Source: an uncultured Gammaproteobacteria bacterium (lineage in GTDB: Bacteria; Patescibacteriota; Microgenomatia; Levybacterales; UBA12049). From it: a stretch of DNA of 64,000 nt. Below, piece after piece: positions 8,914 through 47,330 of this stretch (position 1 is its first letter; the number at the start of each line of letters is the position of its first letter). The stretch lies in the NCBI GenBank assembly GCA_964521295.1, contig CAZFRF010000001.1:140675-204674 (forward strand), written 5' to 3'. A program made the position numbers and the translations under genes. Under the pieces are notes generated by a model. The model did not search any database and was not told where the DNA came from. It saw nothing but the letters and a program-made list of their open reading frames with translations.

Positions 8914-8985
8914 AATAAAAAAACCTCCCGGTTGGGAGGTCAAATGCTTTTTGGCACTTATTTACCTCCCGTTAGGGATAGTAAA
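8914..8985 (-). promoter_or_regulatory. leader/terminator element A: small hairpin (tccc-GTTA-ggga on +) followed by the greA terminator hairpin (acctccc-ggtt-gggaggt + U-tract on the minus strand) and then the SD of the downstream gene
   Basis: 7-bp perfect GC-rich stem at 8923-8940; A-run at 8914-8922 on + (U-tract on minus). The 3' arm of the small hairpin (GGGAGG) is complementary to the terminator 5' arm (CCTCCC). Confidence 0.6.
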
Positions 8986-9021
8986 GTAAAAACCAAAAAA
9001 GTTTCTTAAATTCATATAGAC

Positions 9022-9050
9022 AATATAACAGATAGCCTGTTCTTATTCAA
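9022..9050 (-). promoter_or_regulatory. candidate sigma70-type promoter (TTGAAT-17-TATATT on the minus strand) driving the leader of the 8677..8895 gene
   Basis: Hexamers read on the minus strand; the -35 box overlaps the greA stop. Confidence 0.35.
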
Positions 9051-9495
9051 TAGAAACTATTAAATATTCAACAATTCCTGTTGGTGTTTTAATTTGTGCT
9101 TTTTCTCCAATTTTTTTTCCAAGTAATGCATAGCCAAACGGAGATTTGTTAGAAATTTTCCCAAGTGACGGATTTGCTTCAAACTCGCCTACTATTAAAT
9201 ATTCTTTTTCAAGCTTTTCATTTTTAATTTTAACTTTATGTCCAATTTGAATAATTTCTTTTCCCTCAGGGGTAAAGACCTTAGCAGATTTTAATAAATA
9301 TTTTAGATTGCGCATTTCTCTATCGATATCAGAAAGCTCAAATTTAGCGGCTTTATACAAACCGTTTTCAGATAAATCTCCCATTTCTCTGGCTCTTTTT
9401 AATGTGGCGACAGCTTCAGGTCTTTTGACAACTAAAGCTTGAAGTTTATCTTCAATTTCTTTGATTCCTTGTTTTGTAAAGGGAATTATTCTCAT
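9043..9495 (-). CDS. greA: transcription elongation factor GreA
   Basis: 150 aa; N-terminal coiled coil and C-terminal FKBP-like domain (GKISNKSPFGYALLGKKIGE). Confidence 0.9.
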   Translation of the reverse strand: MRIIPFTKQGIKEIEDKLQALVVKRPEAVATLKRAREMGDLSENGLYKAAKFELSDIDREMRNLKYLLKSAKVFTPEGKEIIQIGHKVKIKNEKLEKEYLIVGEFEANPSLGKISNKSPFGYALLGKKIGEKAQIKTPTGIVEYLIVSIE

Positions 9496-9498
9496 TTA

Positions 9499-10266
9499 TT
9501 AAAAACCACTTGCGGCTGTTGCTCTTCCTTCAAGTTCTGCAATTCCAGTAAGTAAGGAAATTTGTTGAACAGAGTTAACAACATTATGTGAGACAGCGAA
9601 AAATTCTTGACCCGGTTTAATAAAGGGCGCATCAATACTTGGACTACCAAGTAAGCCAATATTTAGGTGTAAAGCTTCTTCAGTGTCAACCTGAATATCT
9701 CTTGGTTGCAGTCCGAACGGAGCCATAGTTGTATAGGCTCTTTGCATTCTAGATTGGATGCCTTCGTTAAGTTCTGCACCAGCGTTTTGAGCAATAAAAG
9801 TAGCAAATGCAGGAGTTCCATCCATTGAGATTGCCCAATTGTCGCCTGGTTTTTGACCAAGGTTTAAATGAAGACGTGTTAATTGAGGAATATCTGTTTG
9901 CGGATCTGCATCTAAGAACGTAGAAAAATCAGTTAGAAGTAATCTTAGAGTTGCAACTCCATTAGTAATATTATCCCAATCTACTCCAAGATGAGTTGGT
10001 TTGGGTAGATCAAATTTATATGTGATCCAATCAGGATGAGCTCCTTCATGAGTTTCTAAAACTCCGCCATAACCCCAGCCGTGTTCTGCGCTTGGTTGTA
10101 CAAATTGTCCAGGAACACTAGAGAATCCTCTTCTTATTTGGACAGTGTCTTTATCAAATGTATTTCTATCTGGAGCAATTGATTTGGGAATATGAATTTG
10201 CAGAGCTTCACCAGTTGTAGCTAATCTATAGACTGCCTTCGGGTTTTCTTGTAGATTTCTAGCCAT
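9499..10266 (-). CDS. hypothetical protein (255 aa), G+C-rich, inserted between rplT and greA
   Basis: Long ORF with clearly higher G+C than the flanking ribosomal genes. TATAAT lies 7 nt before the ATG (leaderless-type) and there is no recognisable SD. No motif recognised. Confidence 0.45.
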   Translation of the reverse strand: MARNLQENPKAVYRLATTGEALQIHIPKSIAPDRNTFDKDTVQIRRGFSSVPGQFVQPSAEHGWGYGGVLETHEGAHPDWITYKFDLPKPTHLGVDWDNITNGVATLRLLLTDFSTFLDADPQTDIPQLTRLHLNLGQKPGDNWAISMDGTPAFATFIAQNAGAELNEGIQSRMQRAYTTMAPFGLQPRDIQVDTEEALHLNIGLLGSPSIDAPFIKPGQEFFAVSHNVVNSVQQISLLTGIAELEGRATAASGF

Positions 10267-10287
10267 TCTGGAGATTATATCAAATTA

Positions 10288-10632
10288 TTATTTAACAGAG
10301 GCAACTAATTTGGTGAAAGTTGCTGGATCGTTAGTTACTAAATCTGCGAGAATTTTTCTATCTAATTCAATTTTTTCTTTTTTAAGTTTTCCAATAAGTA
10401 CGCTGTATGATGTACCTTCTTTTTTAGCAGCTTCACCGATTCTTATTTGCCATAAGGATCTAATATTTCTCTTTTTTAATTTTCTACCATGAAATGCATA
10501 GGCACCAGCATGAAGACTTGCTTCATGTTGCATTTTTGTAAGTTTTGATTTAGTACCTCTATAGCCTTTGGTTAAGACTTTTAATTTATTATGTTTTCTT
10601 TTGGAAACTAATCCTCTTTTAACTCTTGCCAT
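10288..10632 (-). CDS. rplT: 50S ribosomal protein L20
   Basis: MARVKRGLVSKRKHNKLKVLTKGYRG... is the typical L20 N-terminus. Confidence 0.9.
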   Translation of the reverse strand: MARVKRGLVSKRKHNKLKVLTKGYRGTKSKLTKMQHEASLHAGAYAFHGRKLKKRNIRSLWQIRIGEAAKKEGTSYSVLIGKLKKEKIELDRKILADLVTNDPATFTKLVASVK

Positions 10633-10633
10633 A

Positions 10634-10831
10634 TTATAATTCTCCTAATAATTTCTTGATATTTCTACCAAATCTACCACCTAGAACTGCTGGCTCTTTT
10701 TGTCTTCTGATTCTAGATTTACTTTTGTTTTTCTTTTTATGACTGCCATATTGATGTTCAAACATTACCTTACCTTTTTTGGTAACTTTAAACCTCTTGG
10801 CTACTGATTTCTTGATTTTCATCTTTTTCAT
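10634..10831 (-). CDS. rpmI: 50S ribosomal protein L35
   Basis: Small basic protein (MKIKKSVAKRFKVTKKGKV...) between infC and rplT. The true start is probably the internal Met, since the 5' end overlaps infC. Confidence 0.8.
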   Translation of the reverse strand: MKKMKIKKSVAKRFKVTKKGKVMFEHQYGSHKKKNKSKSRIRRQKEPAVLGGRFGRNIKKLLGEL

Positions 10832-11372
10832 TTTGTTTTTTCCTTTCTGGTGAGATTAAAACTATTAATTTTCTGCCCTCTAGTCTTCTCTCTCTGTCTA
10901 CCTTCGATATATCCGAAAGCAAATCTAAAGCTTTATCCAAAGTTCTGTGTCCAAACTCAGGATGAGTAATTTGCCTTCCGCTAAAAGAAACGACTAATCT
11001 GACTTTATCTCCGTTTTGCAAAAACTCTCTTGCTCTACCTACCATTACTTGAAGATCATTGTCTCCCATAAATGGTCCTAGGCGAACTTCTTTGGTTTCA
11101 GTAGTTTTTGCATTTCTTTTCTCTTCTCTTTTTTTCTTTTCCTCTTGATACAAAAACTTCTTGAAATCAATTAATTTTGCTACCGGTGGCTTAGCCATTG
11201 GAGCTATCTCTACTAGATCAAGCTCTTGTTCTCTTGCCAAATTTAAAGCTTCAAATTTGGAGAGTACTCCGATTTGCTTTCCTTCTGAGTCCAAAACCCG
11301 AAGTTCAGTTGCAAAAATTCGTTCGTTAGTGCGATAAAATTTTCTATCGTCTTTTTTAAACTTTTTTATCAA
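10788..11372 (-). CDS. infC: translation initiation factor IF-3
   Basis: N- and C-domains of IF3 (RVLDSEGKQIGVLSKFEALNLAREQELDLVEIAPMAKPPV...), in the conserved thrS-infC-rpmI-rplT order. Confidence 0.85.
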   Translation of the reverse strand: MIKKFKKDDRKFYRTNERIFATELRVLDSEGKQIGVLSKFEALNLAREQELDLVEIAPMAKPPVAKLIDFKKFLYQEEKKKREEKRNAKTTETKEVRLGPFMGDNDLQVMVGRAREFLQNGDKVRLVVSFSGRQITHPEFGHRTLDKALDLLSDISKVDRERRLEGRKLIVLISPERKKQNEKDENQEISSQEV

Positions 11373-12576
11373 TTTCGTCTTTTACCTTTGTTAAGAAATC
11401 TGAAATTTTCAGTACTCCTAAGTCTTTTCCATCTCTTAGCCTTAAAGAGACACTGTCATTTTCGACTTCCTTGCCTCCTATTATACCTAAAAATGGAATT
11501 TTTTGCAAAGTAGCGTTTTTAATCTTTTCTCTTAATGGGTCGCTAGAGCTATCTAAATATACTCTTACTCCCTGTTGGGTAAGATCTTGGCTAAGTTTTT
11601 TAGCAAATTCTAGTTGTGCGTCGGTAATTGGAAGTAAGGCTACTTGAGTTGGAGAGAGCCACAATGGGAAGTTTCCTTGATAGTGTTCAGTAAGAATTCC
11701 AATATATCTTTCAAAGCTACCTAGGATTGCTCTATGGATCATGACAGGCCTACCAAAGCTACCATCTTTTTGGACATATTTTAAGTCAAATGCTTCAGGC
11801 ATATGGAAATCTAGTTGAACTGTTGCAAGTTGCCATTCACGACCTAAGGAATCTTTAATATGAACATCAATTTTGGGTCCGTAAAATGCTCCATCTCCTT
11901 CTTTAAGGGAATATTTTAAGTTTTTCTTTTTTAAAGCTTCTTCTAAGTCTTTTTCAGCTTTTGTCCAGTTGTCCTCTGTGCCTGCGAAGAGCTCGGGTCT
12001 AGTGGCGAGTCTAAAATCAAATTCAAAACCGAATTTAGTATAGAATTCAATCATCATATCTAAAATATTGGAAACTTCTGAAAAAATATCATCTTCTGAA
12101 GCAAAGATATGGGCGTCATCCATGGTAATTTGTCTTACTCTTAAAAGTCCGTTTACTTCCCCACTCTTTTCTCTTCTGTGAAGCCTGCCGATTTCGGAAA
12201 GTCTTAAAGGAAGTTCTCTATATGATCTTGGTCTAAATCTATAGGCAATTGTTGCTTCAGGACAGTTCATTGGTTTTAGAGTATATAGCTCTCCTTTGGT
12301 ATCGTCTTCTGGATTATCCGATAGGTGCAGGTTGTACATGTTGTGTTCACCAAATTTAGTCCAGTGGCCTGATTCTTTAAACAGTTGGGATTTGATCATA
12401 ATAGGAGTTGAGATTTCTTGATAACCCGCTTTATCTAGTAAAAGTCTAATGTATTTTTCTAGCTCTTTAAAAATGATCATGCCTTTTGGAAGCCAGAAAG
12501 GAGCACCTGGTGCATATTCATGTGAGAAAAATAGTTCTAGTTCTTGGCCTAATTGTTTGTGATCTTTTAAATCCAT
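11356..12576 (-). CDS. thrS: threonyl-tRNA synthetase, short form (catalytic + anticodon-binding domains only)
   Basis: Class II motifs (FRxE: RLHRREKSGE; motif 3 region GSFERYIGIL). It has a C-terminal anticodon-binding domain but only 406 aa, so the TGS and editing N-terminal domains are absent. Confidence 0.8.
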   Translation of the reverse strand: MDLKDHKQLGQELELFFSHEYAPGAPFWLPKGMIIFKELEKYIRLLLDKAGYQEISTPIMIKSQLFKESGHWTKFGEHNMYNLHLSDNPEDDTKGELYTLKPMNCPEATIAYRFRPRSYRELPLRLSEIGRLHRREKSGEVNGLLRVRQITMDDAHIFASEDDIFSEVSNILDMMIEFYTKFGFEFDFRLATRPELFAGTEDNWTKAEKDLEEALKKKNLKYSLKEGDGAFYGPKIDVHIKDSLGREWQLATVQLDFHMPEAFDLKYVQKDGSFGRPVMIHRAILGSFERYIGILTEHYQGNFPLWLSPTQVALLPITDAQLEFAKKLSQDLTQQGVRVYLDSSSDPLREKIKNATLQKIPFLGIIGGKEVENDSVSLRLRDGKDLGVLKISDFLTKVKDEIDKKV

Positions 12577-12616
12577 GAGCGTATTTTATCAGCTTTTCTA
12601 AATTTTGTATACAAAG

Positions 12617-12844: not shown

Positions 12845-12887
12845 AGTTAAAGCATGAAGTAAAATTTAAATCTTGTCAAGTTATGGA

Positions 12888-12916: not shown

Positions 12917-12926
12917 TCCATCCAAT

Positions 12927-13874: not shown

Positions 13875-13949
13875 TGGGCCCTAGAAGAGTCGAACTTCTG
13901 ACCTTTACAATGTCAATGTAACGCTCTAACCAACTGAGCTAAGAGCCCG
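13875..13949 (-). tRNA. tRNA-Val (GAC)
   Basis: Cloverleaf on the minus strand: acceptor gggctct/agggccc, anticodon loop TTGACAT, T-loop TTCGACT. Confidence 0.8.
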
Positions 13950-14582: not shown

Positions 14583-15500
14583 TTATTGAGGCTTTATGGC
14601 TGCAACTGGTATTCCTAATCTTCTTTTTCTATGACCTTTTGCTTCTGAAACATGTTGAACGCTGTATGCTAAGGCTTCTCTTTCAATCTGCCTCCATGTA
14701 CCTTGCGGATCATATAAGGGTATTGCTCCAGATGCAATATAGTTTCTCGCGCCATAATATTGTCCATTAGTTAATTTAGATCTGTCTTGAACCATAACTC
14801 CTGCATTTCCTGGATTGTGTTCTTGAGAATCAAGCCTAGGAACACAGGCTAATATTTCATCTTTTAATCTTTCTCTTTCAGGTCTGATACGAGTTAGTAG
14901 TTCATCTCTTTGTTCGTCAGTAATTCTGCCAACAACAGCTAAATCAATATTGCTTGGATCTGGATGATCTGGTCTTTTAACTAATCCTTTAGCAACTGAG
15001 CCAAAAAGTAATACAGCAACGTCATGTTGTGGATCAATTTCTCTCCATTGTTCAACAATGTGTGCAGCCAAACTTCCAGCTTGTCTAAGTAGCACTTCTC
15101 TTCTTTGATAATCGACGTCTTCCATATATCTTCTACCTGCCTCTGGTTTTGGATATCTTTTAGCTAAAATCGCACAATTTTTCATTATTGCGAGTCTTGC
15201 CTTTTCTTCTACTGGCCACAGATTTGCTTTTTCCTCAGTAGTGAATCTTGTTCCTTCTTGTTTGTGTTGTCTTGCTAAAGCCATTACTCTTGCGGTATGT
15301 TCAGGGGCAACAACTTTTATGCCAAACCTAGGTAGAGTTATTAAGTAATCAGGTTTAGTTGGCGTTTGGGTAGCGATTTGTTCAGTTGGGATAACTGTCG
15401 GTAAGCTAGTTTTTTTAGCCACTGTTTGATTTCCCATGAATTGGGCAGCAATCATATCTGGTGTGAATCCTGGTCTTGGTTTTAATTCAGATGTAATCAT
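14583..15500 (-). CDS. nucleotidyltransferase-fold protein, paralog 1 (MNT/pol-beta-like GS...NIDL motif)
   Basis: LLFGSVAKGLVKRPDHPDPSNIDLAVVG fits hG[GS]x(9-13)[DE]h[DE]h, but with Asn in place of the first acidic residue. The likely ATG is at 15498-15500, since the ORF-track start is TTG. G+C-rich. Confidence 0.5.
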   Translation of the reverse strand: MITSELKPRPGFTPDMIAAQFMGNQTVAKKTSLPTVIPTEQIATQTPTKPDYLITLPRFGIKVVAPEHTARVMALARQHKQEGTRFTTEEKANLWPVEEKARLAIMKNCAILAKRYPKPEAGRRYMEDVDYQRREVLLRQAGSLAAHIVEQWREIDPQHDVAVLLFGSVAKGLVKRPDHPDPSNIDLAVVGRITDEQRDELLTRIRPERERLKDEILACVPRLDSQEHNPGNAGVMVQDRSKLTNGQYYGARNYIASGAIPLYDPQGTWRQIEREALAYSVQHVSEAKGHRKRRLGIPVAAIKPQ

Positions 15501-15510
15501 ATTTTTAAAC

Positions 15511-15575
15511 AAAAAAAACCGCCTAGTATATTAGGCGGGTAAATTTTTGCAACGAATCCCCGCCGTTAGGCGTTA
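15511..15575 (-). promoter_or_regulatory. leader/terminator element E: small hairpin cgcc-GTTA-ggcg plus terminator hairpin ccgccta-gtatat-taggcgg with an 8-nt U-tract (minus strand), 11 nt before the start codon
   Basis: Same three-part architecture as elements A-D but with a compensatory GC variant (GGCGGGG/CCCGCC). Confidence 0.55.
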
Positions 15576-15621
15576 ATAAGATCTGCAAAATTTCTACAAA
15601 CTAATTTCATGTTAAGAAAGT

Positions 15622-15650
15622 AATTGTAGTACTAATCTATTAATGTGTCA
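15622..15650 (-). promoter_or_regulatory. near-consensus promoter TTGACA-17-TACAAT (minus strand) upstream of element E
   Basis: RC of 15645-15650 is TTGACA and RC of 15622-15627 is TACAAT, with a 17-nt spacer. Confidence 0.45.
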
Positions 15651-15677
15651 AGTTTTGGGTTAATTTAGGAAGCTAAA

Positions 15678-16460
15678 TTAATTACGGCCTTTATGTGTGT
15701 GCGCTGCTCTTTTAGCCAGTAACCCTGCTTGATATTCAATGGCGCCTTTGTCTATTTCAGCCCAAATTCCCGCAGGATCATGTAGGGCATAAGCTCCTGA
15801 GGCAAGATAGACTCTAGCTTCGCCAAAATGATCTTTAGTTAAGACTTCAGGTTTTTGGACAAATACTCCTACATTTCCAGGTAGTGGATCTAATGTTTTG
15901 TCAACATTTGGACAAGTTGATCTGATTAATTCCCCCAAAGCTGTTCTTTCTTTGCGTATAGCATTTAAAAGTGCCGTGGTTGTTTCGGTTGTAAAGTTTC
16001 CAACAACAGCTAGATCAATGTTGCTTGGATCTGGGTGAAGTCTTGATTTAACAAGACCTGTTGCAACTGATCCAAACAATACAACCGCTATGTCTTTTTC
16101 AGGTTCAATATTCCTCCATTCTGAGGTGATATGATCAGACATTCTATCAGCCATATCTAAAAGTTCAATATGTCTTTCAGTGTCGATTTCATGCATAAAA
16201 CTTTCGCCGATTTGTCTTTCGGGATATCTACGGGCAGTGATTTTGCTACTTAACATTAATTGGATTCTTGCTTTTAATTCAGGCGTCCAAAGCAAAGGTC
16301 TTTGGCTTGGATCTAAAGGTGTATGAACTCTTTGTCCCTCAACAAGCGTAGTTCTTTGTCTAATTGACGATAAAACCTCACGTACAGGAGCAGGAGCAAC
16401 CACTCTTATTCCTGCATGTGGGTGCGTGATTCTTCTATCTAATTCAAATGTATTAATCAT
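15678..16460 (-). CDS. nucleotidyltransferase-fold protein, paralog 2
   Basis: VVLFGSVATGLVKSRLHPDPSNIDLAVVG is the same motif with the same Asn substitution. It is alignable with 14583..15500 over most of its length. G+C-rich. Confidence 0.5.
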   Translation of the reverse strand: MINTFELDRRITHPHAGIRVVAPAPVREVLSSIRQRTTLVEGQRVHTPLDPSQRPLLWTPELKARIQLMLSSKITARRYPERQIGESFMHEIDTERHIELLDMADRMSDHITSEWRNIEPEKDIAVVLFGSVATGLVKSRLHPDPSNIDLAVVGNFTTETTTALLNAIRKERTALGELIRSTCPNVDKTLDPLPGNVGVFVQKPEVLTKDHFGEARVYLASGAYALHDPAGIWAEIDKGAIEYQAGLLAKRAAHTHKGRN

Positions 16461-16545
16461 AAAATAAAAAAACCTCCCAATTTGGGAGGTCTATTTGTTA
16501 TTTGCTAATTTTTAGTTACGCAAATAAACCTCCTTTAAGGAAGTT
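16461..16545 (-). promoter_or_regulatory. leader/terminator element B (terminator hairpin cctccca-att-tgggagg + U-tract; upstream small element cctcctttaaggaag)
   Basis: 7-bp GC stem at 16473-16489; the A/T run at 16461-16472 abuts the start codon at 16460. Confidence 0.55.
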
Positions 16546-16594
16546 ATTCTTGCTCTTGAATTCAAATTTATAGTTCATAGTAGGTATTATAGTA

Positions 16595-17242
16595 TTATCC
16601 AACCTGTTGTGCAACTGCGCGCTCAGAAGACATGCTGTAGCTTGTTCCATGAGACTGGGCCAGGCTCCAAAAGTCTTTTTTGCCTTTTTTACCCGCTAAT
16701 GCTCCTAGCCAGCTTGCGCTAGATTCAATTCTAACTCTAGCGTTTTGAATAGTGGATAACATCCATTCAAAGAAGTTAAGGTGATATTTACCAGGTTTAA
16801 CTGCTTGAGTCATGGTTTCTCTAGTTACATCCTTAAAGGCTGATTCAAGTTCTTTGGAGGCTTGTCTCATTTTAACTAACTCTACTCTAATTTCTTCTAA
16901 TCTTTGGGATACTTCTCTGTTTTCCGCCTGAACTCTTCTAGCTTCTGCGTGGATAATTTCGCCAGCGTAATCTATTCCAGGCTCAACTTCAGCGCGTCTC
17001 TCTTTAGCTGCTTCTTTTCCAAAAGATACTTCTTGGCCTTCTTGAAGGTCTCCAGAGGCATGATGAGCAGCTTGTTGGGTCTCGGCTGCAAACTTATCCA
17101 AGCCTAAGATCTCACGCATAAGATCTTTTGAACCTTCTTTAATAAGGTCATTAGTAAAAGAGTGCGCAACATCACCAGCAAGTTCAAAACCTGCTTCAAG
17201 CTTATCTACTTCACGTAATATTTTAAATGGGTTTTTTGGCAT
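16595..17242 (-). CDS. coiled-coil hypothetical protein (215 aa), G+C-rich
   Basis: Charged, heptad-like sequence (ENREVSQRLEEIRVELVKMRQASKELESAFKD). No motif recognised. Confidence 0.4.
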   Translation of the reverse strand: MPKNPFKILREVDKLEAGFELAGDVAHSFTNDLIKEGSKDLMREILGLDKFAAETQQAAHHASGDLQEGQEVSFGKEAAKERRAEVEPGIDYAGEIIHAEARRVQAENREVSQRLEEIRVELVKMRQASKELESAFKDVTRETMTQAVKPGKYHLNFFEWMLSTIQNARVRIESSASWLGALAGKKGKKDFWSLAQSHGTSYSMSSERAVAQQVG

Positions 17243-17262
17243 ATTTAACTAGTTTGGGTATA

Positions 17263-18096
17263 TCACAGGGACCTTAAGAAATCAAGCGTTTTTTGCTGCC
17301 TGATTATAGAAGCAAGGAGATATTTATTGGCTTCCAAATTTTGTCTTTCTGCGTCAGATTTAGCTGTTGCAATAGCTTCATTTACTTCTTTTTCTTCGGC
17401 AATAATATTTTCTTCTTTAGCAATTTGTTGCAAGATGAATTCAAGTTTTACATCTGTTTCAGCTTTTTTTGCAAATTCTGCCTTAAGGTTGTCAACTGTT
17501 CTACCAGTTGATGACAAGTATTGTTCTAAAGTTAAACCTAATTTTCTAATTTCATCTAAAGTTTGAGATAACAGTTTTTCAACTTCGCTTTCAATAATGA
17601 CTGCTGGAATAACTACATTTCCTTTTGTCATTAAGATCTTAGCAATTTCATCAAAGCTAACTGGTTGTTGGGTTTGTCCAGGAACGACTACTTTAGCTTT
17701 AGCATTTACAGCTTTGACTTCTTCTTTATATCCAGTAATTGTAATAACTGGCATTTCGCAAGTTAAGGCATGAAATTCCCAATCTGCATTGTCATCAATC
17801 TTAGAAATATTAATTCTAGGAGATACAATTGGTGTAATTTTATTAGCAGCAATAGCTTGGCTATATGCCTGAGGCAAAAGTCTTCTTAAAACGTCTTCTT
17901 TAATGTGGTCCTTAGAAAGACTTTGCTCAACCATATTTTTAGGAGCCATGCCTTTTCTAAAACCAGGAATTTCCGCATCTTTGACATGTTCAGCAATAAC
18001 TTGATCTTTAGTTTGTAAAACTAAAGTCCAAGGAACTGAGATTGTGAAATCTATTGTTCCGTCTTCTAATTTTTTAAATGTTGATTTAATATCCAT
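17263..18096 (-). CDS. tig: trigger factor, short form lacking the PPIase domain
   Basis: Ribosome-binding signature IPGFRKGMAPKNMV. The start is taken at MDIKST (18094-18096) because the ORF-track N-terminal extension overlaps tRNA-Leu. Confidence 0.75.
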   Translation of the reverse strand: MDIKSTFKKLEDGTIDFTISVPWTLVLQTKDQVIAEHVKDAEIPGFRKGMAPKNMVEQSLSKDHIKEDVLRRLLPQAYSQAIAANKITPIVSPRINISKIDDNADWEFHALTCEMPVITITGYKEEVKAVNAKAKVVVPGQTQQPVSFDEIAKILMTKGNVVIPAVIIESEVEKLLSQTLDEIRKLGLTLEQYLSSTGRTVDNLKAEFAKKAETDVKLEFILQQIAKEENIIAEEKEVNEAIATAKSDAERQNLEANKYLLASIIRQQKTLDFLRSL

Positions 18097-18105
18097 ATTT
18101 ATTTG

Positions 18106-18189
18106 TGCGGACGAGAGGAGTTGAACCCCCACGCCTTTAAAGGGCACAAGGTCCTAAACCTTGCGTGTCTGCCATTTCACCACGTCCGC
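18106..18189 (-). tRNA. tRNA-Leu (UAG)
   Basis: Minus-strand cloverleaf with a long variable arm, anticodon loop TTTAGGA, acceptor gcggacg/cgtccgc. Confidence 0.8.
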
Positions 18190-20010: not shown

Positions 20011-20094
20011 GCCCGGGTGGCGAAACTGGCAGACGCGCAGTGTTCAGAACGCTGTATCCGCAAGGGTTTGGGAGTTCAAATCTCCCCCCGGGCA
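20011..20094 (+). tRNA. tRNA-Leu (CAG)
   Basis: Acceptor gcccggg/cccgggc, anticodon loop TTCAGAA, long variable arm. A TATAAT lies at 19993-19998 upstream. Confidence 0.8.
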
Positions 20095-20140
20095 CAATAA
20101 TATAGTAAAACGAAGCTAAATTTTGTATAATCAATTTTAC

Positions 20141-20223
20141 GCGGATGTGGTGAAATGGCATACACGCTACCTTGAGGTGGTAGTGCCCTTAAAAGCGTGG
20201 AGGTTCGACTCCTCTCATCCGCA
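20141..20223 (+). tRNA. tRNA-Leu (GAG) (long-variable-arm type; Ser not fully excluded)
   Basis: Acceptor gcggatg/catccgc, anticodon stem ctacc/ggtag with loop TTGAGGT. A TATAAT lies at 20126-20131 upstream. Confidence 0.65.
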
Positions 20224-20279
20224 CATTTATCTCTTGTTAGTTTCAAATTAATTACATATACTCTGTATTAATCTTTTCG

Positions 20280-20379
20280 GGGATTTGCGAAAGTCAAAAT
20301 CGGTAGTAAACTCTACGAGCGAAAGCACGAGTCTGTGAAACTCAGACAGCGACCGTAAAGTCGGGATGAAAGAAAGATT
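20280..20379 (+). promoter_or_regulatory. candidate structured 5' leader (possible riboswitch-like element) upstream of the EamA transporter
   Basis: About 100 nt, G+C-richer, with two GNRA-loop hairpins (gcGAAAgc twice), hairpin gtctg-tgaaact-cagac and hairpin cgac-cgtaaa-gtcg immediately before the SD/ATG. Class unidentified. Confidence 0.2.
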
Positions 20380-21288
20380 ATGAAAAAAATACTTGGTCTT
20401 GGACCATTATTTATTGTTATTGCTGCGAGTCTTTGGGCTTTAGATGGCGTATTAAGAATTTCTCTCTATTCTCTTCCCCCAGCTACTATTGTATTTTATG
20501 AACATCTTTTTGGTTTTGTAATTTTGAGTTTTATTTTCTTTAAATGGATTAAGGATTTAAGAAAAATGACTCGAAAAGAATGGATTGGTATAGTAATAGT
20601 CTCACTTTTCTCTGGAGCTTTAGGTACAATTTTTTATACTCTAGCTTTGCAAAAAGTTAATTTCATTTCTTATAGCGTAGTAGTTCTGTTGCAACAGCAA
20701 CTACAACCTATTTGGGCAATACTTGCAGCGTCACTTCTATTAAAAGAAAAAATATCTAAAAAGTTTCTTTTTTGGACTGTAATAGCTTTAATTTCTGTCT
20801 ATTTTGTTACTTTTAAAGATTTAACTTTTAATTTGCAAACTGGGCAGGGTGTCGCTATTGCCGCTTTGCTTGCTTTAGGTGCTGGATTCATGTGGGGTAG
20901 CTCAACAGCTGTTAGTAAGTTAGTTTTAAAAAAAGTTAGTTTTTTAACTGCAACAGCAGAGAGATTCTTCTTAGCGCCTATTTTTGCTTTGGGATTTGTT
21001 ATTTTGCAAAACCAAACAGCCTCTCTTTTTGCTTTGAATGCAAATCAGATAAATACTCTAGTAATTATAGCTTTGTCTACAGGAATGGTTTCTTTAGTTA
21101 TCTATTATTATGGTTTGAAAAAAACCAGCGCAAGGGTTAGTGCGATCTGCGAAATGGCTTTTCCAGTTACAGCAGTTTTAATAGATTACTTTTATTTTCA
21201 TAAAACGCTCTCCCCTACCCAGATTATAGGAATAATCTTTTTAATCTTTGCTGTCTTTAAGGTTTCGCAGCAAAATAAGAAAGCATAG
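20380..21288 (+). CDS. EamA/DMT-family (drug/metabolite transporter) permease
   Basis: 302 aa with about 10 predicted TM helices in two EamA-like repeats. Confidence 0.7.
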   Translation: MKKILGLGPLFIVIAASLWALDGVLRISLYSLPPATIVFYEHLFGFVILSFIFFKWIKDLRKMTRKEWIGIVIVSLFSGALGTIFYTLALQKVNFISYSVVVLLQQQLQPIWAILAASLLLKEKISKKFLFWTVIALISVYFVTFKDLTFNLQTGQGVAIAALLALGAGFMWGSSTAVSKLVLKKVSFLTATAERFFLAPIFALGFVILQNQTASLFALNANQINTLVIIALSTGMVSLVIYYYGLKKTSARVSAICEMAFPVTAVLIDYFYFHKTLSPTQIIGIIFLIFAVFKVSQQNKKA

Positions 21289-21339
21289 TTTGTACAAATT
21301 TAGTTAATTTGATAAAATTAGATCCTAATGGACGATTAG

Positions 21340-21405
21340 CTCAGCTGGTAGAGCGCTTCATTTACACTGAAGATGTCGCGAGTTCGAATCTTGCATCGTC
21401 CACCA
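21340..21405 (+). tRNA. tRNA-Val (UAC), CCA encoded
   Basis: ggacgattagctcagctggtagagc..., anticodon loop TTTACAC, 3' atcgtcc-a-cca. Confidence 0.8.
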
Positions 21406-21479
21406 GGCTGAGATAGCCAAGGTGGTCAAGGCACCTGTCTGAAGAACAGGCTATATGTGTTCGACTCACATTCTCAGCA
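21406..21479 (+). tRNA. tRNA-Phe (GAA)
   Basis: Acceptor ggctgag/tctcagc, anticodon loop CTGAAGA, T-loop TTCGACT. It directly abuts tRNA-Val. Confidence 0.8.
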
Positions 21480-41907: not shown

Positions 41908-41995
41908 GCCGTGGTGGTGGAATGGCAGACACGAGGGCCTTAAGAGCCTTTGTCTTTAATAGGACGTGAGAGTTCGACTCTCTCCCGCGGCACCA
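41908..41995 (+). tRNA. tRNA-Leu (UAA), CCA encoded
   Basis: Acceptor gccgtgg/ccgcggc, anticodon loop CTTAAGA, long variable arm. Confidence 0.8.
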
Positions 41996-42009
41996 CATCT
42001 TTTATTTTT

Positions 42010-42082
42010 CGGGGAGTGGCTCAGTTGGTAGAGCGCGCGGTTTGGGACCGTGAGGTCGGAGGTTCGAGTCCTCTTTCCCCGA
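42010..42082 (+). tRNA. tRNA-Pro (UGG)
   Basis: cggggagtggctcagttggtagagc..., anticodon loop TTTGGGA, T-loop TTCGAGT. Confidence 0.8.
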
Positions 42083-43094: not shown

Positions 43095-43927
43095 CATATT
43101 ATTGATAAGGTAATTCTAATCGCCTCGTAGAATCCAAATATTCCAATACCTAGAAAAGCTAATCCTCCACCAATTAAAACTATTGGATGTTTAACAATTT
43201 TTAATGTAATTTTAGGAATTAAAAATAAGCCTATTGTCAAAAGCATATGGCCAAACATTACTCCAAGTGTAAAACCAAAAACATTAACATGTCCAAATAC
43301 TGGAATATATCCAGCAAAATCATTAATTCCCAAGACAAACGGAATAGTGAAAGAAAAAATAATAAGATTTATAAAAGATAGCTTTTTAGTTCTCGTTAAA
43401 TTTAAATCAGGAACAAAAAATTTAAGTAATGGTCTAAATAAATTATTTACCAAATCTAATTGGTTTTGCAAAAGGTTAACAGGCATTCTAATTTTAATAA
43501 AACTCTTTTTTTGTTTTAAGAATAATTCAAAACTTTCTTCAGATAGTTTAAGAAGAATTATGCTTGATAGAAGGATTGAAAGAATCATTAAGATATGGAT
43601 TTCTTTAAATAGTGTCCAAGCTATTAGTACGAGAAATGTTCCAAAGGCATTACCTATCGAGGTGCCAATTGCGATTGCAATTTTTTTCTTCCAGCCAGGA
43701 TTAGTATGCATCAGATTGCCCATAAAAATTGCAAAATCTATAGCAGTTTTTAAAAAGATTAAAATTCCGAATAGAAGTTCTCTTTTACGAAAATCTAAAA
43801 TTATTGGGAATTGAAGATTTAATGAGTCTAGGATAAGTAGTACTCCGTATAAACATGTCGAGAGAATAAAAAAAGTAAAAAAACTTAAAAGTACAGGAAT
43901 AAACTTTTCAATAATATGTTTATGCAT
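43094..43927 (-). CDS. polytopic membrane protein (277 aa)
   Basis: Very hydrophobic, about 8 TM helices; no family recognised. Confidence 0.3.
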   Translation of the reverse strand: MHKHIIEKFIPVLLSFFTFFILSTCLYGVLLILDSLNLQFPIILDFRKRELLFGILIFLKTAIDFAIFMGNLMHTNPGWKKKIAIAIGTSIGNAFGTFLVLIAWTLFKEIHILMILSILLSSIILLKLSEESFELFLKQKKSFIKIRMPVNLLQNQLDLVNNLFRPLLKFFVPDLNLTRTKKLSFINLIIFSFTIPFVLGINDFAGYIPVFGHVNVFGFTLGVMFGHMLLTIGLFLIPKITLKIVKHPIVLIGGGLAFLGIGIFGFYEAIRITLSII

Positions 43928-43990
43928 TTATATTTGGATAAATTCAACTTGATTATACAACAAAAGGCAAAAAAGTAGTAAAATATTTGG

Positions 43991-44920
43991 GTGGAAATAT
44001 TATCTATAGTTTTAATTATTGCAGGGCTGGTTTTATTCGAAGTAATTTCGAGTATCGACAACGCCATTATTAACGCTGAAGTCCTTTCTACGATGAAGGC
44101 AAAGGCAAGGCGTTGGTTTCTTTTTTGGGGAATACTGTCTTCAGTTTTTCTAGTTAGAGGCTTACTTCCTTGGCTTATTGTTTGGGTAGTTAATCCAGGT
44201 CTTGGACCAATTGGTGCTTTAATGGCTTCGTTTAGTAGTGATCCTGCTGTCGTTGAATCAATTGAAAGATCTGCTCCAATTCTTTTAATAGGAGGAGGGG
44301 TATTTTTACTTTTCCTCTTTTTACATTGGTTTTTCGTTGAGCCAAAACATTATGGACTTAGAGGTGAGGCATTTGTTCATAGGCATGGTGTTTGGTTTTA
44401 TGCGGTAGTTTCTGTACTTCTTACTGTAATTGTTTGGGCAGCTTTGCAAAAAGATCCCAATCTGGCTTTAGGTGCAGTTGTTGGTTCAACTGTCTTTTTT
44501 ATTACAAATGGATTTAAGCAAAACGCTGAAGAGCAAGAGAAAAAACTAATGGGATCAGGTAAATCTGATATTGCTAAAATATTCTATCTTGAAGCAATTG
44601 ATGCAACTTTTTCCATAGATGGAGTTTTAGGTGCATTTGCCTTTACCTTAATAGTTCCGTTAATTTTTCTTGGAAATGGAATCGGAGCAATAGTTGTAAG
44701 ACAAATTACAATTTCAAATATAGATAGGATTAAAAAGTATATTTATCTCAAAAACGGAGCTATGTATTCTATACTTTTCTTAGGAGCAATAATGCTTGTA
44801 GATAGCTTTGGATATCATATTCCAAGTTGGTTCTCCCCTGTTACTACTTTCGCAATTGTCGGCTATTTCTTCTTTAAATCTAAAAGATTTGCCAACATGG
44901 CAGGCTTAGACTCGAAATAA
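43991..44920 (+). CDS. TerC/DUF475-family integral membrane protein
   Basis: N-terminal SIDNAI motif and several TM helices. Confidence 0.45.
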   Translation: MEILSIVLIIAGLVLFEVISSIDNAIINAEVLSTMKAKARRWFLFWGILSSVFLVRGLLPWLIVWVVNPGLGPIGALMASFSSDPAVVESIERSAPILLIGGGVFLLFLFLHWFFVEPKHYGLRGEAFVHRHGVWFYAVVSVLLTVIVWAALQKDPNLALGAVVGSTVFFITNGFKQNAEEQEKKLMGSGKSDIAKIFYLEAIDATFSIDGVLGAFAFTLIVPLIFLGNGIGAIVVRQITISNIDRIKKYIYLKNGAMYSILFLGAIMLVDSFGYHIPSWFSPVTTFAIVGYFFFKSKRFANMAGLDSK

Positions 44921-44949
44921 TTTAGGTTTTTTGGTAAAATACACGTATT

Positions 44950-45022
44950 GGCCCGGTAGCTCAACGGATAGAGCGAGTGCGTTCTAAGCACCAGGTTGGG
45001 GGTTCGATTCCCTCCCGGGTCA
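44950..45022 (+). tRNA. tRNA-Arg (UCU)
   Basis: Acceptor ggcccgg/ccgggtc, anticodon loop GTTCTAA, T-loop TTCGATT. Confidence 0.7.
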
Positions 45023-45027
45023 CATTT

Positions 45028-46116
45028 TTATCTTTTCCCCTCTTTTTCAATAAATTCTTTTAGTACTTTATAAAAGAGATTTAAACTTTTTATATCAATC
45101 CACTCTTTTTCACTATGTAAATTACCTCCCTTTGGTCTAGTTAAAATTACAGGAATATTTTTTTCTACGAAAAATCTAGCGTCTGATGAGCCATGCGAAT
45201 TGATAAATCCAGTTTTTATTTTATTTTTAGATAAAATTTCTAAAAAAGATTTTAAAAATTTATCACTTTTATCGATTTTATAACTTACACCTTTAGTTTT
45301 AATTTCAATATCAATATTTTTAAATTTTCTCTTAATATTCTTAATCCTTTTAAAAACTTCTTTAAAATTAGTATCAGGTGTAAATCTAATGTCTATCCCC
45401 GCTTCAGCATAATTAGGAACTTGATTGGTAGCATTGCCACCAGAAATCTTACCAATATTTAAGGTTGTGTGATAATGTTTCGGATCATTGCATGGTTCAT
45501 TATTGAATTCATTTCTTAGGTCTAAAAGAAAGTCTGTCAAATTATTGATAGCATTCTTGCCAAGCCATACTCTTGCTCCATGAGCTGAAATTCCTTTACT
45601 TTTAACAACAATTGAGATTGCGCCTTTAGCACTTTCTTCAATTGTCCAATTTTCTCCCCCATCAGGAATAATTGCTAATTTAGACGAGTAACCACTTTCA
45701 AGTATTTTACTTGTACCATTGAATCCTCCAATTTCTTCATCGCTAACAAGCATAATTCCGAAGTCATATTGTTTTAAATTTTTATTTATATCTTTTAATA
45801 GAAAAATATAGCTAGCTACTGCAAATTTCATATCAAATACTCCTCTACCAATTAATTTATTACCTATAATTTTTGGAGCAAACATTTTATCTGATCCAGC
45901 AACTACATCGACGTGACCATTCAGCCAGATTTTCGGAGTTTTGGTTTTACGAGTTGTTATTAAAAGAGCTGAGTGATTATTTGATTTAAATAAAGTTGTA
46001 AATACTGGTAAATTGCTAATTTCATTTTTTATCCATAACAAAGCTTTCTCATTTTCATGAGTATCATTAGTTATAGTTTTAAATTCAACTAGTGTTTTTA
46101 ATAAATCATCTAACAT
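45028..46116 (-). CDS. M20-family metallopeptidase (ArgE/DapE/carboxypeptidase-like)
   Basis: HVDVV metal-binding region, GVFDMK, the catalytic-Glu region DEEIGG, and a C-terminal His (NSHGSSD). Confidence 0.65.
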   Translation of the reverse strand: MLDDLLKTLVEFKTITNDTHENEKALLWIKNEISNLPVFTTLFKSNNHSALLITTRKTKTPKIWLNGHVDVVAGSDKMFAPKIIGNKLIGRGVFDMKFAVASYIFLLKDINKNLKQYDFGIMLVSDEEIGGFNGTSKILESGYSSKLAIIPDGGENWTIEESAKGAISIVVKSKGISAHGARVWLGKNAINNLTDFLLDLRNEFNNEPCNDPKHYHTTLNIGKISGGNATNQVPNYAEAGIDIRFTPDTNFKEVFKRIKNIKRKFKNIDIEIKTKGVSYKIDKSDKFLKSFLEILSKNKIKTGFINSHGSSDARFFVEKNIPVILTRPKGGNLHSEKEWIDIKSLNLFYKVLKEFIEKEGKR

Positions 46117-46117
46117 A

Positions 46118-47080
46118 TTAAGTTTTCACCACAACTGGACCAGAGAGTGAATCTCCTGCACCGTGAATCTTTAAATTATATCTCGCATTCCATGATCCAC
46201 CTAAACACTCCCACTCAGTTGTGTTTGTATTATATCCAAAGAAAACTCTATATATCATCCACTTAAATTCATCTGATATCCCACTTTCCATAGGTGGGAA
46301 AAAACTCTGGCAATATACTCCACCTGATTCTAAACCGTCTTTTACTGCTTGCTCAATTCTTCCTCTTGAGGATGCGCCCGGTGGCCTTTTACTACCTGGT
46401 CCAGGAACATAGATAAACACATCTCTGGTTTTACTGCCTTGCAACGGTTTAATTACACATGCAGAATCAAAATCTATTTCTTCTGGTGTTGTAACTTTTT
46501 TCCATAATCCTAAGCCTTCTCCATAGCTCTTGTCCCCTTTTTTCTTTAAAGAACTAACGCTACGAGGTTCTAGGAAATGGTAGCCTGTCTCATCTGGTTC
46601 CGCGCGAACAAGGACAAGGTCTTCGGTATTTCCTTCTTCTAACCTATCAATCCATAAATGATCATCTGTTGCTTTTCTTCTGGGATCATCTGAGACAACA
46701 GATTTAAATACGGGCCAGGTAGTTCGGATTAAATCTAGTCTTTTTTGAAAATCTGGATTAAGAGCCCCAGTTAAACCAATACCAGATGGTCTTTCTTCGA
46801 CTTCATATATTCCCAAGGTATCATCTTGAACAGCACAATCTAGTCTGATGATTAAAGATGGAATGTTAAACTCTCTTTGTACAAATGTTTCTTCTTTAGG
46901 AAATATTTGTGTCCATCTATTTATTGCAGCTAAACTATCAGTAATATTTCTATCCGTAAATGGTCTTTCTTGGGGTAATACTTTAATATTCCATCCTCCA
47001 ATCACCATATCCTGAAATCCTAAGTTACTAGGAGCATTAGGCGTAGTTAGTAATGGTGGTTCAAGTTCTTTCATAAACAT
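46118..47080 (-). CDS. ATP-grasp-like protein (320 aa), G+C-rich, translationally coupled to the downstream M20 peptidase
   Basis: ACVIKPLQGSKTRDVFIY resembles the ATP-grasp K-loop (vvKP..GS.G.gV). Its stop lies 1 nt before the M20 start. Assignment is tentative. Confidence 0.35.
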   Translation of the reverse strand: MFMKELEPPLLTTPNAPSNLGFQDMVIGGWNIKVLPQERPFTDRNITDSLAAINRWTQIFPKEETFVQREFNIPSLIIRLDCAVQDDTLGIYEVEERPSGIGLTGALNPDFQKRLDLIRTTWPVFKSVVSDDPRRKATDDHLWIDRLEEGNTEDLVLVRAEPDETGYHFLEPRSVSSLKKKGDKSYGEGLGLWKKVTTPEEIDFDSACVIKPLQGSKTRDVFIYVPGPGSKRPPGASSRGRIEQAVKDGLESGGVYCQSFFPPMESGISDEFKWMIYRVFFGYNTNTTEWECLGGSWNARYNLKIHGAGDSLSGPVVVKT

Positions 47081-47168
47081 AAAAAAACCTCCCCTTTAGG
47101 GAGGTTTATCTCTTTTTAGCTTAAAATATATTAAGCCACAGAAATACCTCCCTTCTTAAGGAAGTGGT
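47081..47168 (-). promoter_or_regulatory. leader/terminator element C, ending 7 nt before the ATP-grasp-like gene start
   Basis: Terminator hairpin cctccc-cttta-gggagg with U-tract, AT palindrome gcttaatatattttaagc, and small hairpin cttc-ttaag-gaag/GGGAGG. The SD equals the 3' arm of the terminator. Confidence 0.55.
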
Positions 47169-47217
47169 ATGTAAACCAATATTGACAATTTGTTAAAATC
47201 ATTTGTTTCATAAACAT
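47131..47217 (-). CDS. candidate leader peptide ORF (28 aa, MFMKQMILTNCQYWFTYHFLKKGGISVA)
   Basis: It starts with the same ATGTTTATGAAA as the ATP-grasp-like gene (a duplicated 5' segment) and is preceded by element D. Its C-terminal codons overlap the small hairpin of element C, and its stop is the first codon of the AT palindrome. Confidence 0.3.
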   Translation of the reverse strand: MFMKQMILTNCQYWFTYHFLKKGGISVA

Positions 47218-47285
47218 AAAAAAACCTCCCATTTGGGAGGTATCAATTTGCCATTTGGCAACACAATTACCTCCCGTTAAGGAAA
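47218..47285 (-). promoter_or_regulatory. leader/terminator element D, upstream of the 28-aa ORF
   Basis: Terminator cctccc-attt-gggagg with U-tract, palindrome ttgccaaatggcaa, and small element cctcccgttaaggaaag. Its spacer is similar to element A. Confidence 0.5.
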
Positions 47286-47330
47286 GTATAGTGCCAAAAT
47301 TTGCATAAATTTATTTTCATCTTAAAGTCC

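Follow-up and report, generated by a model that had tools for sequence, protein, structure and literature searches.

Five probable leader-peptide attenuators ahead of pheST and less familiar genes in a 64-kb stretch of a Patescibacteria-like genome

Five leader elements and the genes they precede

The stretch of DNA analyzed here, referred to as the window, is 64,000 nucleotides (nt) long (contig CAZFRF010000001.1 of GenBank assembly GCA_964521295.1, forward-strand positions 140,675 to 204,674). Its minus strand carries pheS and pheT, a pair of nucleotidyltransferase-like genes, and a gene for an ATP-grasp-fold protein followed by one for an M20-family deacylase, and ahead of these genes lie five small elements: A (8914-8985), B (16461-16545), C (47081-47168), D (47218-47285), and E (15511-15575). 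An earlier note on this DNA had given all five a common three-part architecture, which was borne out by reading of the sequence and by motif and terminator scans. In each, a small hairpin, hairpin (i), is followed by an AT-rich spacer, whose palindrome is a true hairpin, and then by a GC-rich terminator with a U-tract, after which an ATG is found. The 3' arm of hairpin (i) is GGGAGG in A to D and GGCGGGG in E, and the terminator in A to D reads ACCUCCC-loop-GGGAGGU. The motif CCTCCC-N3-8-GGGAGGTTTT has four matches in the window, which are exactly A, B, C, and D, and none in 100 shuffled sequences. A strict scan of both strands for a hairpin plus T5 returned six sites on the minus strand, five of which are these elements.

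The earlier note had described this architecture without coding, overlooking that hairpin (i) of all five copies is overlapped by a short leader open reading frame (ORF). In all five elements an ATG-initiated ORF of 14 to 28 codons runs through the 5' arm of hairpin (i) (region 1). It stops right after the GGG AGG of the 3' arm (region 2) in A and D, in the loop of hairpin (i) in E, and 4 to 5 codons past region 2 in B and C. The terminator (regions 3 and 4), with a stem of 7 to 10 bp and then 7 to 8 U, separates the leader ORF from the structural gene.

Element A lies ahead of a 72-amino-acid ORF (8895-8677), pheS (8646-7600), and pheT (7598-5658), which together span 5658-8895. Its leader ORF (8962-9015) encodes MNLRNFFGFYFTIPNGR, with four Phe residues and one Tyr, and is preceded by a promoter-like site (9022-9050, TTGAAT-17-TATATT) with 6 nt between its -10 hexamer and the leader ATG. 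Region 1 (8975-8987) is within the leader ORF; region 2 (8956-8970, GGGAGGUAAAUAAGU) has either region 1 or region 3 as its partner; and the terminator (8917-8941, GACCUCCC-AACC-GGGAGGUU, with its stem at 8941-8922) shares the last two U of its stem with a 7-U tract at 8923-8917. The 72-amino-acid ORF is devoid of Phe, Tyr, and Trp, which make up about 10% in the background, and is 22% Ala with a G+C content of 0.425. It has no family match and matches none of 45 small ORFs (<150 amino acids) downstream of attenuators in other genomes, which fell into no common family when clustered. It may encode a small protein built for Phe starvation, or it may be no real gene.

Elements B and E each precede a member of a pair of paralogs. 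At B, a promoter-like site (16586-16613, TGCACA-16-TATAAT; -10 hexamer ending 7 nt before the ATG) is followed by a leader ORF (16516-16578) encoding MNYKFEFKSKNNFLKGGLFA. Regions 1 (16545-16537) and 2 (16535-16527), a spacer hairpin, and regions 3 (16491-16483) and 4 (16479-16471) lie within 16466-16545, where a 7-U tract (16472-16466) begins with the last two U of region 4. The start codon at 16460 opens a gene for a 260-amino-acid nucleotidyltransferase-like protein (15678-16460). At E, the promoter-like site (15623-15651, TTGACA-17-TACAAT) has 11 of 12 matches, and the leader ORF (15566-15610) encodes MKLVCRNFADLINA. The four arms, within 15511-15572, are CGCC (15572-15569), GGCGGGG (15564-15558), CCCGCCUA (15539-15532), and UAGGCGG (15525-15519), with an 8-U tract at 15518-15511. 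These arms co-vary as GGCGGG/CCCGCC/GGCGG, the compensatory changes on both partners that the earlier note had pointed out. The gene behind E (14583-15500) encodes a 305-amino-acid paralog of the B protein with 43% identity.

Elements D and C form a tandem. The promoter-like site of D (47331-47359, TTGACA-17-TAGAAT, 11 of 12 matches) has no other coding upstream of it on its own strand; a divergent tRNA gene is located at 47412-47483 (+). The D leader ORF (47267-47320) encodes MKINLCKFWHYTFLNGR, and regions 1 (47287-47279) and 2 (47275-47268), a spacer hairpin, and regions 3 (47242-47235) and 4 (47230-47224) occupy 47218-47287 together with a 7-U tract (47224-47218) that starts with the last U of region 4. 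The C leader ORF (47131-47217) encodes MFMKQMILTNCQYWFTYHFLKKGGISVA and begins 7 nt past the GGGAGG of D region 4, which is its Shine-Dalgarno (SD) sequence. Regions 1 (47164-47158) and 2 (47154-47146), a spacer hairpin, and regions 3 (47106-47098) and 4 (47094-47086) follow within 47081-47164, and the 7-U tract (47087-47081) begins with the last two U of region 4. The genes behind the tandem (45028-47080) encode a 320-amino-acid ATP-grasp-fold protein, starting at 47080 (47080-46118), and an M20 deacylase of the ArgE/DapE family (46116-45028). The 320-amino-acid protein belongs to a family of hypothetical proteins (56 clusters) with no Pfam domain; its confident structural model (pLDDT 93) has an ATP-grasp fold, for which Foldseek gave glutathionylspermidine and glutathione synthetases as the nearest matches (probability 1.0, TMq 0.55, about 10% identity).

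The gap from the end of the U-tract to the ATG is 0 nt in C and D, 5 in B, 10 in E, and 21 in A, rather than the 7 to 20 nt given previously. The view that all of the elements precede G+C-rich, foreign-looking genes is weakly borne out: the first gene after each element is modestly richer in G+C (0.38 to 0.425, against a window mean of 0.339), but no such enrichment is seen in pheS (0.342), pheT (0.282), or the M20 gene (0.281), and a gene outside this regulation, that for DUF5660, reaches 0.415.

A ribosome-dependent choice between terminator and antiterminator

For each element, an RNA beginning at the leader AUG and ending with the U-tract was folded, and a translating ribosome was mimicked by forcing everything up to 12 nt past the A-site codon to be single-stranded. 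The free RNA folds into a hairpin between regions 1 and 2 (1:2), the spacer hairpin, and the terminator (3:4). With the ribosome mask, an antiterminator between regions 2 and 3 (2:3) displaced the terminator only when the A site was at codons 7 to 11 in A (F G F Y F), 6 to 11 in D (C K F W H Y), 6 to 9 in E (R N F A), or up to 15 in C (Y W F). Past this switch window and through the stop codon, the terminator formed again. In all five elements 2:3 is at least as stable as 3:4 (-12.2 to -26.0 versus -11.2 to -13.6 kcal/mol), and the antiterminator is therefore competitive with the terminator, the point on which the earlier note had proposed a folding check. Its proposal that the 3' arm of hairpin (i), complementary to the 5' arm of the terminator, forms an antiterminator agrees with both the folds and the energies.

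We conclude, with a probability of about 0.88, that all five are ribosome-mediated (leader-peptide) attenuators of transcription, like those of trp, phe, and pheST in E. coli. This conclusion draws on the alternative structures and their energies, on the leader ORFs and their conservation, and on the agreement of leader codons with downstream genes elsewhere (described below). Initiation of transcription, stalling, and the response in vivo would be as follows. Transcription would begin at or a few nucleotides ahead of the leader AUG, except that the C leader would be initiated through the SD sequence inside the D terminator. The leader ORF traverses region 1 and stops at or just past region 2 (GGGAGGU). 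When the sensed aminoacyl-tRNAs are plentiful, a ribosome at the stop codon would mask region 2, and region 3 (ACCUCCC) would pair with region 4; if translation does not start, 1:2 would form and the 3:4 terminator would follow likewise. In either case transcription would end, with the SD sequence of the structural gene buried in the hairpin. A ribosome that stalls on the regulatory codons, which immediately precede region 1, would instead mask region 1, allowing 2:3 to pair around the spacer hairpin, so that no terminator forms, RNA polymerase reads on, and region 4 is free to serve as an SD sequence.

Judged from its sequence, A is the putative pheST attenuator, predicted to sense Phe (and Tyr) and to control the 72-amino-acid ORF together with pheS-pheT: its leader carries FFGFYF ahead of pheST, and the switch at codons 7 to 11 means that the cognate codons are correctly placed. 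The D-C tandem is predicted to sense aromatic amino acids (Phe, Trp, and Tyr, plus His) and to control the ATP-grasp-like gene and the M20 deacylase gene; the aromatic codons of both leaders are correctly placed for the switch and are conserved in relatives. The signal for B is probably Lys/Asn. That for E is uncertain, and Phe may be involved.

Several observations weigh against this interpretation. In the minimum-free-energy fold of B, the terminator stays at every ribosome position. Neither the B nor the E leader has a run of a single amino acid, which leaves the sensed signal uncertain, and the genes downstream of B, E, and C are not recognizable as functioning in amino acid biosynthesis or tRNA charging. 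The AT-rich window as a whole has no excess of promoter-like sites (65 found versus 66.7 expected). Finally, the pattern used below to scan other genomes itself sets regions 2 to 4, leaving region 1, the ORF, and the downstream gene as the only independent tests. In the case of B, the pairings taken alone favor 2:3 (-17.0 kcal/mol) over 3:4 (-13.6 kcal/mol), which makes it plausible that antitermination there is a co-transcriptional, kinetic choice.

The promoter-like sites bear on how the leaders are translated. The earlier note had placed promoters upstream of A, D, and E; these sites were found again, but the list was incomplete, as B has one as well (16613-16586). Their presence upstream of A, B, D, and E is consistent with the proposal that the elements are transcribed as 5' leaders from promoters of their own. 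The distance from the -10 hexamer to the leader ATG is 6 nt in A, 7 in B, 10 in D, and 12 in E, and none of these leaders has an SD sequence. The A and B leaders appear to be leaderless, and the D and E transcripts would have 5' untranslated regions of only a few nucleotides, about 3 to 6. Among the matches listed in the scan of other genomes, 59 of 114 attenuators have a TTGACA-like -35 and a TAnnnT -10 ending 6 to 10 nt before the leader ATG, and an SD-like sequence precedes the leader ATG in only 3 of 114, which implies that leaderless leader peptides would be the norm in this group.

At the other end of the element, a start codon (ATG, GTG, or TTG) lies within 5 nt past the U-tract at 84 of 126 sites among the matches listed. 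This is in line with the earlier proposal that the terminator 3' arm doubles as the SD sequence of the following ORF, which would couple termination with translation initiation. In such an arrangement the OFF state would both end transcription and hide the SD sequence, and the ON state would do the reverse. In the tandem, where D region 4 is the SD sequence of the C leader, read-through of D would license translation of the second sensor. On transcripts entering from greA, the DUF5660 gene, or the B gene, the leader ORF would have no initiation signal, and the element would then be just a terminator.

In some loci a second SD sequence (AAGGAGGTGA) and an ATG are found past the U-tract, including the window at 8893-8916 and loci L010, L011, L015, L021, L023, L028, L033, L048, L070, L087, L094, L105, and L107 of other genomes. 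The start codon right after the U-tract in these loci opens either a mini-ORF (e.g., ATG GCA AGG AGG TGA) or an in-frame extension across the SD sequence. Either arrangement could be a re-initiation or coupling device.

Related loci in other genomes

Orthologous loci were chosen through their downstream genes and not through the terminator pattern. In a relative whose 320-amino-acid gene is 85% identical (L128), the D/C tandem is retained. This relative has an unchanged D peptide and a C peptide with the core CQYWF(N/T)YHF and a different N terminus, and a promoter-like TTGACA-17-TACAAT occupies the position equivalent to that of D. Four more distant loci (L129 to L132; 41 to 47% identity to the 320-amino-acid protein) all have an upstream aromatic-rich leader ORF and a terminator. 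In that order, their leaders include ..FVSYILFWR, ..FSMFCYLYTH, ..GYWHYLRLF.., and ..NNWFFGFYFT, and their stems are GAGAGG/CCUCUC, GCGGG/CCCGC, GAGGCCAG/CUGGUCUC, and GCCGG/CCGGC. Orthologs of the gene behind C have attenuators with aromatic-rich leaders on 5 of 5 other contigs, again with differing stems, and the ATP-grasp gene is always followed by the M20 deacylase gene in the other genomes examined. Aromatic-rich leaders in every ortholog examined suggest that the role of the ATP-grasp protein is tied to aromatic amino acid supply.

Relatives of B retain both the leader and the gene order tig-DUF5660-attenuator-gene. Their B-type leaders are MNYRFELKSKNNFLKGGLFA (L133) and MNLKLVKNSKKNSVKGGLFA (L134, 51% protein identity), in which the Lys/Asn codons are kept (KSKNN versus KNSKKN). 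The E-type leaders in the same two relatives are MKFVCRNFADLINA and MKSLFIVKFLINA, respectively, both with GGCGGG/CCCGCC arms. A metagenome scan for homologs of the B and E proteins yielded three loci, one of which (L123, 39% identical) has E-type attenuator arms; the other two (L124 and L125) gave no clear picture.

For B and E only, a different stimulus has to be considered, in which a translation inhibitor stalls the ribosome in the manner of erm, cat, or lnu leaders and thereby induces modifying enzymes of the nucleotidyltransferase fold. The downstream proteins have weak matches to NTP_transf_2 (E = 3e-4 and 1e-3, below the cut-off), they form a rare family of unknown function (8 clusters found), and the absence of a single-residue run from their leaders would fit a drug signal. 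We nevertheless regard drug induction as unlikely. Searches of Pfam, NCBIfam, and PDB linked neither protein to a known resistance nucleotidyltransferase, the architecture is that of A, C, D, and the amino acid-matched attenuators elsewhere, and the conservation of Lys/Asn codons in the B leader at 51% protein identity is what codon sensing predicts. The B and E proteins are themselves low in F, N, and K, a depletion of sensed residues that is suggestive but confounded with G+C content; it is absent in the ATP-grasp protein.

The order trigger factor, DUF5660, attenuator, variable gene is found in the window (14583-18147, -) and in L129, L130, and L133 to L135. The variable gene is the nucleotidyltransferase-like paralog pair in the window, a nucleotidyltransferase-like gene in L133 to L135 (a pair only in L133), and ATP-grasp plus M20 in L129 and L130. 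Attenuator-controlled genes seem to be placed preferentially behind DUF5660.

Direct alignment of the five window copies left 25 of 162 columns invariant, including the U-tract and parts of the arms, and beyond these two features no identity is seen. If the genome contained scattered copies of a repeat, a mobile element, or a cassette-boundary sequence, the last of which the earlier note had suggested, this would account for the identical ACCTCCC..GGGAGGTTTTTTT of four copies and for the adjacent duplicates C and D, both with ATGTTTATGAAA after the U-tract. The shared arms are explained by the requirement that region 4 be an SD sequence, however, and the copies do not align beyond them. The position after tig-DUF5660 is syntenic across genomes with diverged attenuator sequences, and orthologous genes carry attenuators with other stems. 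We therefore consider a copied repeat extremely unlikely. The description of the five copies as homologous holds for C and D, which look like true duplicates, but the others are alike mainly through common design constraints. The family is defined by mechanism and not by alignable sequence, so that a covariance model of the five would for the most part recover the SD-like arms.

This is also how the additional copies and the covariation sought by the earlier note presented themselves. Seventeen attenuators were searched for the upstream sequence that pairs best with the terminator 5' arm. In 14 of them this partner exceeded all but at most 3 of 300 shuffles (13 of the 14 at ≤1/300), and its sequence follows the arm (GGGAGGU, GGCGGG, GGCCGGU, or GAGGCUAG). 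The upstream partner co-varies with the terminator arm, across elements that are analogous and not alignable.

For the pattern scan, one genome per GTDB species was searched with GGAGGT-N17-47-ACCTCCC-N3-6-GGGAGGTTTTT, which gave at least 120 further loci. Among the matches listed, most are labeled Patescibacteria (Curtiss-, Levyi-, Davies-, Woese-, Roizman-, Dojka-, Shapiro-, and Saccharibacteria), and others form a clade of Gammaproteobacteria (Rheinheimera, Alkalimonas, Alishewanella, and Arsukibacterium). An ATG-initiated ORF of 8 to 45 codons ending near the first GGAGG was present at 113 of the 124 sites listed, against 41±5 (maximum, 52) in 200 shuffles, and 102 of these 113 leaders have at least three identical residues within some 7-residue stretch. 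Many matching records, TPA_asm metagenome-assembled genomes (MAGs) labeled "uncultured Gammaproteobacteria" or "Pseudomonadales" (L007, L015, L017, L020 to L022, L027, L029, L030, L043, and others), are AT-rich and carry attenuator types that are Patescibacteria-like and unlike the genuine Rheinheimera/Alkalimonas pheA leaders; their taxon labels may be unreliable. At two Patescibacteria loci (L048, 3880-3924, -; L094, 3163-3230, +) the attenuator lies immediately 3' of the 23S-5S rRNA genes.

Downstream genes in these genomes were identified by Pfam, and leader codons match them. Cys-containing leaders precede a PALP enzyme (cysteine-synthase-like, CysK; SCCCTSY), a Cys/Met-metabolism pyridoxal phosphate-dependent enzyme (NCCAILP), and a PIG-L deacetylase (LCCGNLS). 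SPSSSSSPL is found before a fusion of HAD hydrolase, 2-hydroxyacid dehydrogenase, and ACT domains (SerB-SerA-like), HNITTQ before ThrRS, QNQQNNTR before GatC, IIGIIIT before threonine dehydratase (IlvA), and YMMEMMQ before MetE. For the aromatic pathway, FYFYFTS and WFYFYFTS precede genes for 3-deoxy-D-arabino-heptulosonate 7-phosphate (DAHP) synthase and dehydroquinate synthase, and FFYFFFAF precedes prephenate dehydratase; FWFYF runs also occur among the leaders of these three kinds of genes. In the gammaproteobacterial clade (Rheinheimera, Alkalimonas, and Alishewanella), the leader RFFFSFTTQSGR, with FFFSF, precedes chorismate mutase-prephenate dehydratase, i.e., pheL-pheA, the classical pheA leader. 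Such matches are the signature of classical attenuation, which neither a riboswitch nor a repeat would yield.

The same loci bear on whether hairpin (i), with its UAAC/UUAAC loop, could bind a metabolite or protein and decide the switch without translation. The loop is similar in four window copies (UAAC, UUAAC, UUAA), and one switch stands ahead of functionally unrelated genes, as might be expected of a ligand- or protein-binding riboregulator. The similarity follows from the reading frame, ..AAC GGG AGG UAA, however, and over the 124 sites the upstream 5' arm and loop vary freely, with the in-frame ORF and gene-matched codon runs being what is kept. Hairpin (i), at 3 to 8 bp, is too small and variable for an aptamer, the 5' parts differ among the copies with conservation at the peptide and codon level, and no Rfam family, including metabolite riboswitches, matches the elements at threshold. 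A translation-independent regulator of this kind is in our view very improbable.

Plain 3' terminators of the upstream genes (greA, DUF5660, and the B gene), with hairpin (i) and the ORF incidental, would make sense of other features: A, B, and E sit 50 to 80 nt past the stop codon of a co-oriented gene, where they would end read-through, and intrinsic terminators are otherwise rare in the window. This account does not extend to D, which has no upstream gene on its strand and is preceded by the 11/12 promoter match, or to C, which comes directly after D. An upstream copy of the terminator 3' arm is far more common than chance, leader ORFs are enriched about threefold over shuffles, and orthologous genes retain the attenuator in differing upstream contexts. 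A role as terminators alone is accordingly very unlikely, and attenuation by leader-peptide translation remains our preferred explanation.

Two other candidates were dropped. One was an erm-type leader peptide with a GTG or TTG start 5 to 7 nt past the first GGAGG; a large subclass of the sites lacks any start codon at that place, and the ORF that is conserved is the upstream one, which ends at GGGAGG. A terminator at 33269-33247, considered as a sixth attenuator in the window, is an ordinary terminator after an Hsp20 gene.

Genome context and comparison with known systems

Strict intrinsic terminators number 8 in the 64 kb (both strands), of which 5 are the attenuators, and a laxer scan found 14 where 13.7 were expected; with so few strict sites, ordinary gene ends in this genome would mostly be without canonical terminators. 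The window also contains an FMN riboswitch (20269-20381, +; 76.5 bits, above the gathering threshold) that abuts an ORF for a 302-amino-acid EamA-family transporter (20380-21288, +), plausibly a riboflavin importer under FMN riboswitch control. Fourteen tRNA genes occur singly or in pairs, without large clusters (e.g., at 13875-13948, 18106-18189, 20011-20223, 21330-21479, and 41908-42082). The proteins of the window are found on a 935,984-bp contig, which together with the scattered tRNA genes fits a very small genome.

The mechanism itself is textbook, and the elements on their own are no discovery; what seems to be undescribed is its heavy use in tiny-genome bacteria of the Patescibacteria type. 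A tiny genome here spends at least five loci in 64 kb on ribosome-mediated attenuation, and the design recurs across many Patescibacteria MAGs. To our knowledge, Patescibacteria (candidate phyla radiation [CPR]) lack most known regulators. It is possible, and we suggest it tentatively, that they and their relatives have a large, undescribed "ribulon" of leaderless leader-peptide attenuators built on a platform with the SD sequence in the terminator, which would be a main means of amino acid sensing and would also control genes of unknown function. If so, the codons of a leader could be taken as a marker of function for genes of the CPR "dark matter," such as the ATP-grasp and M20 operon (aromatic), the nucleotidyltransferase-like paralogs (Lys/Asn), and small ORFs without the sensed residues. 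Leader codons are in this way testable hints at the physiological role of unannotated genes, and the combination of an SD sequence in the terminator with leaderless sensory ORFs offers a simple search rule for annotating regulators in metagenomic genomes. The features that would go beyond the textbook are the apparently leaderless leader ORFs, the terminator 3' arm as an SD sequence, and the tandem D-C pair.

We found no description of leader-peptide attenuation in Patescibacteria or the candidate phyla radiation in the full-text literature searched, and literature on Saccharibacteria and leader peptides held nothing evidently on attenuation, judged by title or abstract. At gathering thresholds, Rfam gave nothing at the elements in the window or at 18 related loci. 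Relaxed searches with Phe_leader (RF01859; threshold, 55 bits, not reached) scored A at 39.3 bits (E = 1.5e-5, aligned from leader AUG to U-tract), C at 34.3, D at 33.0, and B at 29.7, and those with Trp_leader (RF00513; threshold, 41 bits, not reached) scored C at 32.3 and D at 20.0. The elements are built like leader-peptide attenuators and would work like them, yet lie outside the Phe_leader and Trp_leader families. The earlier note had proposed an attenuator or riboregulator of no named family; the terminator/antiterminator switch stands, but the elements are in all probability classical leader-peptide attenuators and not an unrecognized class.

In E. coli, the Phe-rich leader pheM precedes pheST and forms its attenuator. 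As in the pheST (pheM) and pheA (pheL) attenuators of E. coli, the Phe-rich leader of A overlaps region 1 of a 1:2/2:3/3:4 switch that ends in an intrinsic terminator, and the predicted target of A is Phe-tRNA synthetase, where theirs is Phe-tRNA synthetase or Phe biosynthesis. Unlike those attenuators, A has an apparently leaderless leader without an SD sequence and an extra 72-amino-acid ORF ahead of pheS, the terminator 3' arm of the elements would be the SD sequence of the next ORF, and the host is apparently a small-genome bacterium of the Patescibacteria type.

Attenuators of the classical type are known from Proteobacteria and Actinobacteria, aminoacyl-tRNA synthetase genes included; pheST attenuation is cited for gammaproteobacteria, and trpS and leuS of Streptomyces are predicted to have such attenuators (PMC1262725). 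The trp, his, leu, thr, and ilv attenuators of Proteobacteria and the trpS and leuS attenuators of Streptomyces share the mechanism and layout proposed here, and related loci have the cognate codons. In contrast to the trp, his, leu, thr, and ilv attenuators, the elements described here would control genes of unknown function (ATP-grasp plus M20, the nucleotidyltransferase-like paralogs, and many small ORFs) and include the D-C tandem, in which read-through of the first would expose the SD sequence of the second leader.

T-box leaders of aminoacyl-tRNA synthetase genes in Firmicutes likewise let amino acid or uncharged-tRNA status set a terminator/antiterminator choice upstream of genes such as pheST and thrS. 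The elements differ from them in having neither a specifier loop nor a T-box sequence, with sensing by translation of a leader ORF; no T-box match was obtained in the window at the gathering level or around A at E≤1.

Another parallel is the mycobacterial "Cys ribulon," in which stalling at cognate codons of leaderless polycysteine short ORFs is reported to free a ribosome-binding site, with an effect on translation through sequestration of that site (bioRxiv 10.1101/834739). The two systems would have in common leaderless sensory ORFs, remodeling of the RNA by stalling to free a ribosome-binding site, and many loci coordinated only via the ribosome, and the pattern-scan set likewise has Cys-rich leaders before cysK-like genes. 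By comparison with the mycobacterial system as described there, the elements also carry an intrinsic terminator and a U-tract, so that both transcription and translation would be affected.

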